From: Escherichia phage Seurat
Direction: 5' to 3' (one strand)
Sequence record: NC_027378.1
Length of the DNA stretch: 56,776 nucleotides
Shown here in pieces: positions 1 to 56,776 of the stretch. Made by a program: the position numbers and the translations under genes. Position 1 is the first letter of the stretch; the number at the start of each line of letters is the position of its first letter. The notes beneath the pieces were generated by a model. The model had not been told where the DNA came from. It ran no database searches and was given only the letters and a program-made list of their open reading frames with translations.

Positions 1-1
1 T

Positions 2-163
2 AAATATCCTTTGGTTTATACAAGGGACATTATCCAACGTTTGCAGGATACAGAAACAGCTCTGACTGAATGTAAACTGAGGGTTAAGGAAATCATACGC
101 TATGAAGCTGAAAATGTTTCGCTTGATTTTGTAGGATCAAGCAATTATATTCAGCCTAAATAG
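2..163 (+). CDS. 5'-truncated ORF entering from the window start; candidate C-terminal part of the o-spanin if the genome is circular/permuted
   Basis: Open frame 2-160 with TAG at 161-163; frame is continuous with the ORF starting at 56634 across the junction 56776->1. Confidence 0.3.
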   Translation, partial: KYPLVYTRDIIQRLQDTETALTECKLRVKEIIRYEAENVSLDFVGSSNYIQPK

Positions 164-18466: not shown

Positions 18467-18494
18467 TTAACCCCTCAAACGAGGGGTTAATTTT
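18467..18494. terminator. bidirectional intrinsic terminator between J and the convergent lipoprotein gene
   Basis: TTAACCCCTC-aaac-GAGGGGTTAA perfect 10-bp stem with T-rich flanks on both strands. Confidence 0.6.
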
Positions 18495-18727
18495 CAATAA
18501 TCAATCACACAGTTTGAAGGTGAGCCAATTCGTCGGTATTCGTGATCAATTTCATGGCACCATTGCCCAGTCATTGGAAGCTTTTCGGTATTATAAATTA
18601 AAGAACCGTTACCATCGCGATCCAAAGGTTTTGGAATAACGCCGGAATTTGGTTTACCAGTATTTAAACCATTACCACATGCAGTGAGGGACAAACATAA
18701 TGCCAGCATAATTAGAGCGTGTTTCAT
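18494..18727 (-). CDS. small outer-membrane lipoprotein, candidate receptor-blocking superinfection exclusion protein (Cor/Llp-like)
   Basis: 77 aa; signal peptide MKHALIMLALCLSLTAC with lipobox LTAC; opposite strand between J and the side fibre; RBS AAAGGAG. Confidence 0.6.
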   Translation of the reverse strand: MKHALIMLALCLSLTACGNGLNTGKPNSGVIPKPLDRDGNGSLIYNTEKLPMTGQWCHEIDHEYRRIGSPSNCVIDY

Positions 18728-52821: not shown

Positions 52822-53087
52822 TTACTGCTCAAGAAGCTCGTGAATTAAGCGATAAGCTGGATATTAGCGAAGATATTGAATTTATCAGTGACAGCATTCG
52901 TGTAGCTGCTACAAAGGGATACAATAAAGTATCACTGGTGACCAAATACGGCGCTGTTGGCAATCCTGACACTCAAGACCCAACCACTATGAAGATCGCT
53001 AAATGGTTAGCCGATTCTGGTTTTACGGTGCTATATTATCCTTCCATGGACCAACGTGATAACGAGCGTACTGAGGTAGCATGGTGA
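52818..53087 (+). CDS. hypothetical protein
   Basis: 89 aa. Confidence 0.45.
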   Translation: MITAQEARELSDKLDISEDIEFISDSIRVAATKGYNKVSLVTKYGAVGNPDTQDPTTMKIAKWLADSGFTVLYYPSMDQRDNERTEVAW

Positions 53088-53155
53088 TTGAAGAAAATAT
53101 CAAATATTGGAAAGGCTTTATTGACGAAATGTTGAAACCATTGGAGAAGAAATAA
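53081..53155 (+). CDS. translationally coupled micro-ORF (24 aa), not in the ORF track
   Basis: ATG overlaps the upstream stop (ATGGTGA) and its TAA overlaps the downstream ATG (TAATG). Confidence 0.35.
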   Translation: MVIEENIKYWKGFIDEMLKPLEKK

Positions 53156-53547
53156 TGCTATTAGTCGTCACCGGAGGTCGAGATTTTAAGCATGTGGAGT
53201 ATATTTACGCTCAATTGGATAAGCTGCATATGCAAAGAAGGATAACCACACTTCGCCACGGTGACGCTGACGGTGTTGACCGGATTTGCGCACATTGGGC
53301 GGAGCGCAACGGTATTAAAACAGAAGCATTCCCTGCCCCGTGGGACAATCTTTCCTTACCAAATACCAAGATACGGTATAATGCCAAAGGTGCTTATAAT
53401 GCACAAGCAGGCGCTTACCGCAACCAATTAATGCTGGATACTGATCCTAAACCAGATCACGCTATTGTGTTTCCTGGCGGAGCTGGTACTATGGATATGT
53501 ACAGACGGATTAAAGCATCCGGTATTCCTTACACTTTAGCGGAGTAA
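53155..53547 (+). CDS. SLOG/LOG-like Rossmann-fold protein (DUF2493-like)
   Basis: VVTGGRDF, GDADGVDR and VFPGGAGTMDM glycine-rich motifs. Confidence 0.45.
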   Translation: MLLVVTGGRDFKHVEYIYAQLDKLHMQRRITTLRHGDADGVDRICAHWAERNGIKTEAFPAPWDNLSLPNTKIRYNAKGAYNAQAGAYRNQLMLDTDPKPDHAIVFPGGAGTMDMYRRIKASGIPYTLAE

Positions 53548-53550
53548 ATA

Positions 53551-54021
53551 ATGGCTGACGTTAAAACTATTGTTGATGCAATGGACGAGTCCAAAGACTG
53601 CCAACTGAAGAAGTCGTTTGAAGTAAAACAGGTTACAGAGACTCAGTTAGTCTGTAATTTTGCGCGTTATTGTGGACTGGGCCGTGGGAAAGACTGGAAC
53701 GGGCTTATTGTTATGCCCACATCACAGATCCTCGTTTACGTCCGCAATATTGTAGAAGATCTTTTGCGTCTTCAAATAGATATTGGTGACGTAGAAATTA
53801 ACATGACCGCGAGCTCTACCATTGTGGTTAAATGGCAGTCGGGCGAGACACTGCGTTTGGAAGCGTGCCATTGTGCTAAGAGCCTACACCACCTGCGCGG
53901 TTGTCATTACCAGTTCGTTGGGTTTGTACATCCGCAAGGGTTAAGCGAGCGTACGGCGCTGGTAGCGCGTTTGCTGCTGCGTCCTTATAATAACGAGCCG
54001 GAAGTTATATACGAGGCATAA
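53551..54021 (+). CDS. hypothetical Cys/His-containing protein
   Basis: 156 aa. Confidence 0.45.
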   Translation: MADVKTIVDAMDESKDCQLKKSFEVKQVTETQLVCNFARYCGLGRGKDWNGLIVMPTSQILVYVRNIVEDLLRLQIDIGDVEINMTASSTIVVKWQSGETLRLEACHCAKSLHHLRGCHYQFVGFVHPQGLSERTALVARLLLRPYNNEPEVIYEA

Positions 54022-54022
54022 A

Positions 54023-54448
54023 ATGTCAGTAAATTTTGTCAAACAGCCAACTTTAAATACATGCGTTTCTGCGTGTTTGGCAATGATCCTTAATAAACCT
54101 GTTGAGGATGTTATTGAGGAATTTCACAATCGATATTATAACAATTGGGAAATTACTATTAGTGAATATTTGACCAAGAATGGAGTTAAACATCACTGTT
54201 GTGAAGGTGGTGGGCGTGAAACTTTGCATATGGGAGGTTTGTTCCTGTGCACGGTGCCAAGTCTTAATATTCCTGGCGCATTGCACCAGATTGTGATTGA
54301 TATGACGGATCACAAGTTTATTGTGCATGATCCAATTAAAGGATGGGAAGGTAAAAAGTTCTATGTTGGTCCGGATCAAGATCCTGAAGAGCTTGGAGCT
54401 TTTATCATTCATACTTGGGTCAAAGACGTTGAAATCCTGCCTTATTAA
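54023..54448 (+). CDS. papain-like cysteine peptidase, C39-like
   Basis: QPTLNTCVSACLAMIL matches the Gln/Cys active-site region of C39 peptidases; downstream His and Asp (HQIVI, IVHDP). Confidence 0.55.
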   Translation: MSVNFVKQPTLNTCVSACLAMILNKPVEDVIEEFHNRYYNNWEITISEYLTKNGVKHHCCEGGGRETLHMGGLFLCTVPSLNIPGALHQIVIDMTDHKFIVHDPIKGWEGKKFYVGPDQDPEELGAFIIHTWVKDVEILPY

Positions 54449-54510
54449 TTTTCTTGCTATCACATAACCCTTCATTGTATTGTGTACCCATCGAATAAGA
54501 GGGGTACACA

Positions 54511-54696
54511 ATGACCAAACTATACGCCGGATTGTTTTTATTTGCGACGTTAATGTTCGCTGGGCTTTATACCTATACAGTAGTCGAACAACCTTCCACG
54601 GTTATCCGAATCTTTGCAAGTACAGGGCTTTGCATCTGTCTTATTCTATTTGTTTTATGCATTGTTATTATCCAAGACCAAAGGAAAGTTAAATGA
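54511..54696 (+). CDS. holin-like small membrane protein (2 TM)
   Basis: 61 aa, two TM helices, basic C-terminus QDQRKVK; RBS AAGAGGGG. Confidence 0.5.
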   Translation: MTKLYAGLFLFATLMFAGLYTYTVVEQPSTVIRIFASTGLCICLILFVLCIVIIQDQRKVK

Positions 54697-55157
54697 CCAC
54701 AATTGCGTTTGATGGAAAAGTATTAGCTGCGGACCGTGGCGTTATGCGCGGGGAAGCTGTGACTGCTTATAAGAAAGTTCATAGCGTGAATGGACATCGT
54801 GGACGGTTTTTACTGGGCTTGTGCGGTTTGACGGCATTTACCGATCAGGTGTTGCGTTATTTTAATAGCGCGGAACCTGTTAAGTTCCCTGATATTAAAC
54901 TTTACAGCAAAGATGATGATTACGGGCAAACTTGCGGTCTTGCTGTCACTCCGGAAGGTACTTGCCATTTTATTTATAATGATGGTACTTTGAGCGAGCC
55001 CATGCTGGATGGATGGGGATCTGAGGGTAGCGGTTGTGTGTTTGCTGCTGGCGCATTAGCTGCTGGTGCAAGTGCAAGCGAAGCTATTGAGCTGGCAATT
55101 AAACACACCACATGCGCATTCCTGGGAGTTGATACAATATCATTTGAGGGTTTTTAA
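54693..55157 (+). CDS. HslV/proteasome-like Ntn-hydrolase (putative Thr peptidase)
   Basis: N-terminal MTTIAFDGKVLAADRG (Thr after Met), YKKV, GSEGSGCVFAAGALAAG...SASEAIELAIK colinear with HslV. Confidence 0.55.
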   Translation: MTTIAFDGKVLAADRGVMRGEAVTAYKKVHSVNGHRGRFLLGLCGLTAFTDQVLRYFNSAEPVKFPDIKLYSKDDDYGQTCGLAVTPEGTCHFIYNDGTLSEPMLDGWGSEGSGCVFAAGALAAGASASEAIELAIKHTTCAFLGVDTISFEGF

Positions 55158-55418
55158 ATGACTACATTCAGTCACCTGATCCCACCTGCTTATCATAGTA
55201 AGGTAGTTGACCACGGGACGCATGTTGTAATTGGTGGCGAAATCTTTATCACAGATAACGAGGAAATCGCCATTGCAATTATTGACAGCACTCAGCATGA
55301 CTTTATGGTTATCCTGCAACACGAACCAGATAACTTCACTTTTTACTCCAGCTACGGGGTCGATAAAGGTGGAAAAAGCCTTGTTAGCTGGTACATTAGC
55401 GAGTGGTTTGACGGGTAA
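55158..55418 (+). CDS. hypothetical protein
   Basis: 86 aa; RBS GAGGG. Confidence 0.45.
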   Translation: MTTFSHLIPPAYHSKVVDHGTHVVIGGEIFITDNEEIAIAIIDSTQHDFMVILQHEPDNFTFYSSYGVDKGGKSLVSWYISEWFDG

Positions 55419-55500
55419 TCTCCTTAGATCAATTCTCCTTGCGCCGTATCAAGTTTCTCTGTTACCCTTGAGTGGTTCATGTCAAGCGGAGGAACTCGAT

Positions 55501-55938
55501 ATGGCACTTCAACCTCGTGGTATTCGTAATAACAATCCAGGCAATATTCGCTGGGGTGATAATTGGCAGGGCTTAGTTCCTGCTGATAAGCGAACCGATA
55601 AATCTTTTGCTCAATTCACGCAACCGATTTACGGCATTCGTGCGCTAGCGAAAATCCTGACAAACTACACCAAACGTGAAGGCTTACCCAATGTGGGTAA
55701 GAAAAACATCGACACTGTACGTGAAATTATCGCTCGCTGGGCACCGCCTAACGAAAACGATACGGAAGCGTATATTCGCTCTGTTGCCAAAGCAATTGGT
55801 GTTCAACCTAACGATCCAATTAATGTCTTCGACAAGGCAATTATGTCAGGATTGGTGAAAGCAATCATTCGTCATGAAAATGGCATGATGCCCTATACCG
55901 ACGACGTAATTAACCGCGCTATTGCAATGGTACTTTAA
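55501..55938 (+). CDS. hypothetical protein, positional candidate endolysin
   Basis: Start reset to the ATG at 55501 (RBS GGAGG); lies between holin-like and spanin genes; no catalytic motif recognised. Confidence 0.35.
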   Translation: MALQPRGIRNNNPGNIRWGDNWQGLVPADKRTDKSFAQFTQPIYGIRALAKILTNYTKREGLPNVGKKNIDTVREIIARWAPPNENDTEAYIRSVAKAIGVQPNDPINVFDKAIMSGLVKAIIRHENGMMPYTDDVINRAIAMVL

Positions 55939-55974
55939 CTGACGGGGCGTTAGCCCCTTTTATTTGGAGGGAAC

Positions 55975-56319
55975 ATGTTCAATTCACCCAACGAACATTG
56001 GGCAGTTCTAGCGGGGTTTGCGTTTATCTCCCTCATTGGGGGAGCTCTCGGTTATGTCATGCGTACAATAGACGCTGGTAAGAAAGTACGGGCAAGCATT
56101 GCATTTCTTGAAGGCTTATCCGCCGCTTTCTTTGGCGTTATAATGTATGCGATCTACAGGGAGTTTAACATCAGCCTTTGGTTCGCTTTTGGCCTTGCTG
56201 GCCTATTTGCTTGGGCAGGTTCACGTGCTACGCTAAAAGCCCTAACGTCGCTTATAGCTTCACGGACAGGGATCAAACTCGATTCAGGGGACTGCAAACA
56301 TGAAAACGATTCTAAATAA
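55975..56319 (+). CDS. membrane protein (3 TM), holin-like
   Basis: 114 aa; three hydrophobic helices; RBS GGAGGG; just upstream of the spanins. Confidence 0.45.
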   Translation: MFNSPNEHWAVLAGFAFISLIGGALGYVMRTIDAGKKVRASIAFLEGLSAAFFGVIMYAIYREFNISLWFAFGLAGLFAWAGSRATLKALTSLIASRTGIKLDSGDCKHENDSK

Positions 56320-56776
56320 CTTCTTCGGTTTTATAAAAACTAAACCGCGTCTGTTTATCGAGTATTTGATGATCGGCGCGGTTGTGTTTTTATGCGGGGT
56401 GGCTGCATACTTGTGGTCACAGAACGAGCTTAGCAAAACTAATTTAAATCATGCTGAGCAAAGACTAACTGTTGTAGAACAGGACAATGCAAAGCTGGGC
56501 GAAGCTGTTGTATTTCTTGCATCCCAACGGGAGAAGGATACTGAATCCTATCGAAAATTGGCTTCAGCAATTGAAAGTGAGCAACATAACCACAGGTTGC
56601 TTCAGGACAAATTAAAAGCACTGGAGAAAAGCAATGCCGACGTCAAAGCTTATCTTAATGAGCGTGTTCCTGATGATTTGCGCAGGCTGCTCGACGGAGA
56701 TACAACCTCCACCACCGCCGCAGATAGTGAAGATAAAACTTCCGGCTCATCTGTTGGTAGAATGTCGGGAAGTTGA
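56300..56776 (+). CDS. i-spanin (Rz-like)
   Basis: N-terminal TM helix then charged coiled-coil periplasmic domain; embedded +1 frame lipoprotein ORF. Confidence 0.65.
   Translation: MKTILNNFFGFIKTKPRLFIEYLMIGAVVFLCGVAAYLWSQNELSKTNLNHAEQRLTVVEQDNAKLGEAVVFLASQREKDTESYRKLASAIESEQHNHRLLQDKLKALEKSNADVKAYLNERVPDDLRRLLDGDTTSTTAADSEDKTSGSSVGRMSGS
56634..56776 (+). CDS. o-spanin (Rz1-like lipoprotein), 3'-truncated at the window end
   Basis: +1 frame inside the i-spanin gene; MPTSKLILMSVFLMICAGCST signal/lipobox-like start then PPPPPQ; no stop before the window end. Confidence 0.55.
   Translation, partial: MPTSKLILMSVFLMICAGCSTEIQPPPPPQIVKIKLPAHLLVECREV

Follow-up and report, generated by a model that had tools for sequence, protein, structure and literature searches.

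A stand-alone Enc34-type protein is the very probable endolysin in the lysis cassette of Escherichia phage Seurat

The closest described system is the endolysin ORF39 of Hafnia phage Enc34, the catalytic domain of which is PDB entry 7Q47 (Cernooka et al. 2022, PMC8943055). This domain, listed in CDD as PHA02564 ('V virion protein'), was muralytic on outer-membrane-permeabilised E. coli, P. aeruginosa, and H. alvei (PMC8943055). The fold is all-helical and distantly similar to the alpha-lobe of lysozyme-fold enzymes of the GH73 and GH23 type (PMC8943055). Glu131 was proposed as the catalytic residue and Trp79 and Tyr95 were found to be conserved, with the roles of these residues assigned by structural superposition, and the authors argued for N-acetylglucosaminidase activity (PMC8943055). 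M4Lys of Salmonella phage BSPM4, which contains the PHA02564 'virion protein' domain, was able to degrade purified peptidoglycan, and M4Lys alone was able to lyse E. coli independently of holin and Sec via its C-terminal transmembrane domain (TMD) (Bai et al. 2020, PMC7143992). By LC-MS, the products of M4Lys appeared to be mixed, pointing to both glucosaminidase and endopeptidase activity. The muralytic constructs in the two studies were Enc34 ORF39deltaC and M4LysdeltaTMD, respectively (PMC8943055, PMC7143992). P5 of phage PM2 was re-annotated as an endolysin by superposition of an AlphaFold2 (AF2) model on 7Q47, with the Trp, Tyr, and Glu residues conserved (Yutin et al. 2022, PMC9502842). 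Similarity to Enc34 has also been noted for a T6SS effector domain. Pae87 of Pseudomonas phage JG004 belongs to PF11860 (PDB 7Q4S and 7Q4T) and is distinct from 7Q47.

The window analysed here is the whole 56,776-nt sequence of Escherichia phage Seurat (NC_027378.1), a CAjan-like E. coli siphophage of the genus Seuratvirus with a genome about 98% identical to public phages. Megablast of positions 53000-56776 matched 32 phage genomes at a query coverage of at least 80% and 93-98% identity; 31 of the 32 were Escherichia phages, and CAjan and other BASEL isolates were among the matches. The relatives that were inspected, namely KS_A8, SeppeHuegi, and OddieOddie, are all classified as Seuratvirus (Queuovirinae). 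The 56.8-kb sequence is a whole, circularly closed phage genome, because joining its last and first bases restored a 101-aa o-spanin ORF identical to the CDS0103 product of KS_A8. The features of the lysis region are listed in Table 1.

Table 1. Coordinates of the genes and signals in and near the lysis cassette of phage Seurat
Feature	Position	Strand	Description
C39-like protein	54023-54448	+	141 aa, phrog_4049; Gln8-x5-Cys14 … His88 … Asp103-Pro
61-aa protein	54511-54696		Two hydrophobic segments; PHROG without function
HslV-like protein	54693-55157	+	phrog_1040, E 5e-32; N-terminus MTTIAF…
Shine-Dalgarno sequence GGAGGA	55488..55493	+	7 nt before the endolysin ATG; read from the sequence
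Endolysin (very probable)	55501..55938	+	145 aa, single domain, soluble; Enc34/PHA02564 (phrog_873) family
Holin	55975..56319	+	114 aa, LydA/holin superfamily III; at least two strongly hydrophobic segments
i-Spanin	56300..56776	+	158 aa; N-terminal TM segment at residues 18-36, charged periplasmic domain
o-Spanin, N-terminal part	56634..56776	+	47 of 101 codons; +1 frame, overlaps the i-spanin gene
o-Spanin, C-terminal part	1..163	+	Rest of the ORF across the circular junction

Several observations were made in the wider genome. At the locus extracted from SeppeHuegi (2194-2664), a putative homing endonuclease gene separated the 61-aa TM gene from the HslV-like gene, and it was absent at about position 54693 in Seurat. 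Several other relatives aligned to the 53000-56776 query in two pieces, and such insertions may be part of the differences in genome length within Seuratvirus. On the minus strand, a 77-aa ORF at 18494-18727, starting with MKHALIMLALCLSLTAC…, was flanked by the J-like tail tip gene and the tail fibre gene. Its N-terminus is typical of a lipoprotein signal and has an LTAC lipobox; given the neighbouring receptor-binding genes, it may encode a Cor/Llp-like lipoprotein for superinfection exclusion. On the plus strand, a YspA/cpYpsA-related SLOG domain (PF10686, E 5e-18) was found in the 130-aa product of positions 53155-53547, a protein that is labelled 'GTP-binding domain' in PHROGs and 'phosphoribosyl transferase' in some records.

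A preliminary description of this locus had reported a lysis cassette without a recognisable endolysin, with a 145-aa protein in which no lysozyme, amidase, or peptidase signature could be seen. For Pfam and NCBIfam this was confirmed: scans of the protein against Pfam, NCBIfam, and PADLOC gave 0 matches, and a precomputed Pfam domain was absent from all 120 of the closest database homologues. The protein had not been placed because no Pfam or NCBIfam match exists. It did not hold for PHROGs and PDB, where the matches were clear. The protein matched phrog_873 'endolysin' over residues 3-144 (E 4.7e-63), and weaker matches of the same domain were to PHROGs named 'tail injection transglycosylase', tape measure protein, and head protein. 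A phmmer search against PDB found 7Q47 with an E-value of 7.1e-34 over query residues 5-130. The AF2 model, built from a 48-sequence alignment, had a pLDDT of 96.8 and a pTM of 0.90 and was helical, with no strand of three or more residues by DSSP. The sole significant Foldseek match of this model in PDB was 7q47 (TM 0.88, rmsd 2.2 Å, E 4e-15, 41-43% identity). Judging from the model, the 145-aa protein shares the all-helical 7Q47 fold, a permuted lysozyme alpha-lobe without the beta-lobe.

Glu131, Trp79, and Tyr95 of Enc34 aligned to Glu126, Trp80, and Tyr91 of the 145-aa protein, respectively, in the HMMER alignment. When 1.84 billion cluster representatives (50% identity) were searched exhaustively with HMMER, 10,193 relatives were identified at E <= 1e-3. 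Conservation was counted in a domain alignment of the best 150 of these 10,193 relatives, mostly about 50-60% identical to the query, and Glu126, Tyr91, and Trp80 were conserved in 100%, 99%, and 91% of them, respectively. The N-terminal signature R6-G-I-R-N-N-N-P-G-N15 was almost invariant in the same 150 representatives, with N12, P13, and N15 at 100%. The motif IRNNNPGNIRWG, which had been singled out in the preliminary description, is this N-terminal signature of the Enc34/PHA02564 family. An identical protein is carried by VogelGryff, where it is annotated 'putative endolysin' in GenBank, and the same protein is labelled 'endolysin' in several other near-identical Seuratvirus genomes.

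Taken together, the 145-aa ORF very probably encodes the phage endolysin, a stand-alone peptidoglycan glycosidase domain of the Enc34 type (CDD PHA02564, PHROG 873, PM2 P5-like). The claim that no endolysin could be recognised is thus not supported, and of the two options offered at the time, the first, an endolysin of a family that could not then be placed, was borne out; the family is that of Enc34/PHA02564, PM2 P5, and phrog_873. Because the endolysin belongs to a family with a solved structure, the lysis cassette is complete and ordinary. The finding is explained and already known, because near-identical genomes carry the endolysin label and both a crystal structure and biochemical data are available for the family. 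By analogy with these relatives, the 145-aa protein would be muralytic, and its bond specificity would likewise be read from theirs. Literature searches on stand-alone or Seuratvirus members of the family found no experimental work.

The endolysin gene is followed by the holin gene and then by the spanin genes. The 114-aa holin matched PF16083 with 39.8 bits (cutoff 28.4, E 4.8e-10) and the holin family phrog_785 with an E-value of 8e-25. Two holin-like proteins had been proposed for this region; the LydA-type assignment of the 114-aa protein was confirmed, whereas the 61-aa protein is holin-like in topology only. The gap between the endolysin stop and the holin start is 36 nt long (55939-55974), so that the holin gene begins 37 nt after the stop codon. 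Within this gap, positions 55944-55957 form a hairpin, GGGGC-GTTA-GCCCC followed by TTTTATTT, which looks like a textbook intrinsic terminator. Its role may be to dampen transcriptional read-through towards the genes for holin and spanins, or to stabilise the 3' end of the endolysin mRNA.

The proposed pair of i-spanin and o-spanin was also confirmed. The i-spanin, with its TM segment, matched the Rz-like spanin family phrog_89 (E 1.4e-11) and, under the cutoff of that model, TIGR03495 LysB (E 4.9e-9); its SeppeHuegi homologue is annotated as i-spanin. The o-spanin ORF, which overlaps in the +1 frame, encodes a signal peptide, a lipobox-like ICAG|C, and then PPPPP. As the o-spanin gene crosses the end-to-start junction of the record, tools that drop ORFs at sequence ends miss it. 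In SeppeHuegi, the annotated start of the o-spanin gene (MZ501104.1, 59863-60048) lies 3' of the signal peptide and lipobox. The annotation is probably truncated at the N-terminus, because the ORF with signal peptide and lipobox, starting with MPTSKLILMSVFLMICAGC…, begins 120 nt before the annotated start.

The 145-aa protein showed no TM-like segment, with a maximum 19-residue Kyte-Doolittle value of 0.92, and it ends about 19 residues past the catalytic Glu. [quoted passage not shown] Most likely, the protein is soluble and depends for its release on the LydA-type holin encoded next to it, because it is without a C-terminal membrane domain, signal, or SAR sequence; the one indication of holin-dependent release is this missing export signal on the endolysin. 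In the mechanism that we propose, the folded enzyme would build up in the cytoplasm late in infection, and the LydA-type holin would then permeabilise the inner membrane and gate the release of the enzyme. Glycan strands would be cut with Glu126 as the single catalytic glutamate and with Trp80 and Tyr91 positioning the substrate, and the overlapping i-spanin and o-spanin would finally disrupt the outer membrane.

The genes 5' of the endolysin encode the HslV-like protein and an 86-aa protein (phrog_23528, E 6.5e-51), both as had been described. A sequence search of the HslV-like protein against PDB gave nothing significant. In Nonagvirus ESCO3, an HslV-like homologue is located in the same position and is annotated 'proteasome subunit alpha type-2'. 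Both genera, Seuratvirus and Nonagvirus, have the HslV-like Ntn-hydrolase gene close to their lysis cassette. A more elaborate reading of the cassette would be that the HslV-like Ntn-hydrolase forms a proteolytic layer that times or activates lysis, for instance through cleavage of the endolysin, the holin, or an antiholin; the 61-aa two-TM protein and the C39-like cysteine peptidase would possibly take part. Separately, the bond specificity of the stand-alone Enc34-type enzyme might be that of a glucosaminidase, that of a lytic transglycosylase, or mixed. We consider this reading very unlikely.

The family to which the 145-aa protein belongs is widespread. Many members form part of virion proteins, and a role in lysis from within does not follow from belonging to the family. 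By tblastn, the domain was found in 790 of about 50,700 phage records, including Chi-like phages ('lysis protein A'), Seuratvirus, Nonagvirus, and Pseudomonas Mu-like phages of the genus Casadabanvirus, where it forms a stand-alone 138-aa protein beside an Rz-like spanin. Further matches were found in Vibrio phages of about 10 kb, a size typical of tailless Autolykiviridae and corticoviruses, at the N-terminus of the internal virion protein gp16 of Kayfunavirus, and in the 'tail injection transglycosylase' of phage D6. The architectures among the 150 representatives were stand-alone, with a C-terminal TMD, with an N-terminal TM segment, with an N-terminal extension, and as part of large virion proteins. 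The same lysin domain was located at residues 3-128 of PDB 9VVP chain L (Gp29, 1295 aa; E 1e-22), presumably a large virion or ejection protein of a phage; a literature search found no paper describing this entry. The database labels of the family include 'structural protein P5', 'virion protein', 'capsid and scaffold protein', and 'DNA binding protein'. The labels are inconsistent because there is no Pfam or NCBIfam model for a family of more than 10,000 clusters at 50% identity, and for the same reason Pfam-type scans keep reporting 'lysis cassettes without endolysin'.

The presence of the domain inside large virion proteins (the gp16-like proteins, the D6 protein, tape-measure and head PHROGs, and Gp29), together with the many names of the 'structural protein P5' or 'virion protein' type, which are derived from corticovirus PM2 P5, would be compatible with a 145-aa protein that is packaged in the virion and opens the murein locally at DNA injection rather than at the end of the cycle. 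We regard this as very unlikely for Seurat, where the protein is a stand-alone domain without an attachment module and its gene adjoins the holin and spanin genes, with genes of regulatory or unknown function on its other side, at the other end of the plus-strand late region from the head and tail genes. The stand-alone homologues of Nonagvirus and of the Pseudomonas Mu-like phages also occupy the endolysin slot beside spanins or holins. Furthermore, no other endolysin candidate was found among the proteins scanned against Pfam or in the KS_A8 annotation, and the holin and spanins would lack a partner if the protein were a virion lysin. Lysozyme, transglycosylase, amidase, and peptidase domains were absent by Pfam from the tape measure, the J-like protein, the tail fibre, the tube, and other tail proteins, and in KS_A8, which is 98% identical and was annotated with PHROGs, this endolysin is the sole lysin listed. 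Among the ORFs tested by Pfam and through the KS_A8 annotation, none other matched a known endolysin family.

The ORF itself had been correctly called in the preliminary description. The 145-aa protein starts with MALQPRGIRNNNPGNIRWG, and a strong Shine-Dalgarno sequence lies ahead of its ATG. Within the ORF, 26 of the 30 substitutions relative to OddieOddie were synonymous, compared with just 4 of 25 when this frame was followed through the upstream stretch 55231-55500. The ORF is a real coding sequence under selection. The frame is open from 55231 in the Seuratvirus genomes, and a long form of 213-214 aa, which starts inside the 86-aa gene, is annotated in KS_A8 (58191-58832) and Dru_SM1; some GenBank long calls range from 213 to 235 aa, and about 145 aa is the length given for most homologues in the databases. 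Judging from the sequences, the 213-235-aa calls are over-extensions and the 145-aa product is right, because of the upstream substitution pattern and the in-frame stops in the Nonagvirus and MP48 homologues.

These long calls, with the frame open across Seuratvirus and N-terminal TM segments in 16 of the 150 family representatives, are what would speak for a SAR endolysin triggered by a pinholin, in which a longer product from TTG 55231 or ATG 55297 carries the extension as a SAR-like anchor. The proposed extension is rich in Gly, Ala, Ser, and Thr and is weakly hydrophobic (…ALLAGTLASGLTGNLLRSILLA…). Part of it (55231-55418) overlaps the 86-aa gene, which is read in another frame and has its own PHROG match. 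The homologues of Nonagvirus and Pseudomonas phage MP48 have in-frame stops just 5' of the ORF and share the same start, M-x-x-Q-P-R-G-I-R-N-N-N-P-G-N. Besides these, the length of most database homologues and the ribosome binding site already mentioned argue against the longer product. No SAR signal-anchor was found by hydropathy in the 145-aa product, and the upstream frame is without purifying selection. A SAR-type long isoform is rejected on the substitution pattern and the comparative stop codons, and such a trigger is accordingly given hardly any credence here.

The second option of the preliminary description, that the C39-like cysteine peptidase provides the murein degradation, fared worst, also in the form in which the peptidase assists and the 145-aa protein has another role. 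Some clan CA enzymes (CHAP, NlpC/P60) are peptidoglycan peptidases, and the C39-like protein showed a weak Pfam Peptidase_C39 match at residues 3-25 (E 0.034) and Q8, C14, H88, and D103 invariant in 12 homologues, with the Gln/Cys/His/Asp spacing of the papain clan. The option is the least probable of all, since the PF03412 match scored 14.4 bits against a gathering score of 22, the PDB sequence search gave chance matches, the AF2 model had a pLDDT of 64 and no Foldseek match in PDB below E 0.5, PHROG 4049 is a family without a functional label, about 1 kb and four genes separate the C39-like gene from that of the holin, and a strong and specific endolysin assignment is already held by the 145-aa protein. 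The Foldseek noise for the C39-like model contained a few papain-like folds (RavD, FMDV Lpro, CHAP-K). Only 15 homologues were found in 5.8 billion proteins, and the four named by source were from Escherichia and Salmonella phages. The C39-like protein may well be a small papain-clan peptidase, but none of these results links it to murein, and lysis can be explained without it.

The 145-aa protein is therefore best treated as the endolysin of Seurat. The discovery value is small, as the protein is one more ordinary representative of an endolysin family that has been described before; the lesson concerns annotation. The stand-alone form without a TMD would be a convenient soluble enzyme for settling the bond specificity of the family.

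Compared with Enc34 ORF39, the Seurat endolysin has a homologous catalytic domain of about 42% identity, the RGIRNNNPGNI signature, and the Trp/Tyr/Glu active site, and both proteins are encoded in a holin/spanin lysis cassette of an enterobacterial siphophage. However, Enc34 ORF39 carries a C-terminal transmembrane domain that the 145-aa protein is without. The translated homologue of the Chi-like phage ST-W139 is 237 aa long and also has a hydrophobic C-terminus. Since the TMD on which Enc34 ORF39 and M4Lys depend for lysis without holin is absent here, the export route is not transferable from those relatives, and holin-independent lysis of the M4Lys type is not expected. PM2 P5 and the lysins of Vinavirales and Autolykiviridae belong to the same family as the Seurat endolysin, but those lysins come from tailless, membrane-containing phages, with P5 as a virion component, whereas the Seurat protein is the very probably non-structural product of a stand-alone gene in the lysis cassette of a tailed phage. 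The stand-alone homologues of Nonagvirus (ESCO3, Kpn2-P2) and Casadabanvirus (MP48 ORF21, JBD30) are 138-145 aa long, have the same N-terminus (MALQPRGIRNNNPGNI… in MP48), show 45-64% protein identity to the Seurat endolysin, and adjoin holin and/or Rz-like spanin genes. The gene order in Nonagvirus, with the spanins before the endolysin and holin, differs from that in Seurat. Lambda R with S105 and T4 E with T differ from the Seurat endolysin in their catalytic fold, which is of the GH24/GH23 type and unrelated in sequence to the all-helical Enc34 type; the likeness to these systems lies in the presumed mode of action, namely a cytoplasmic enzyme, holin-gated release, and spanins.
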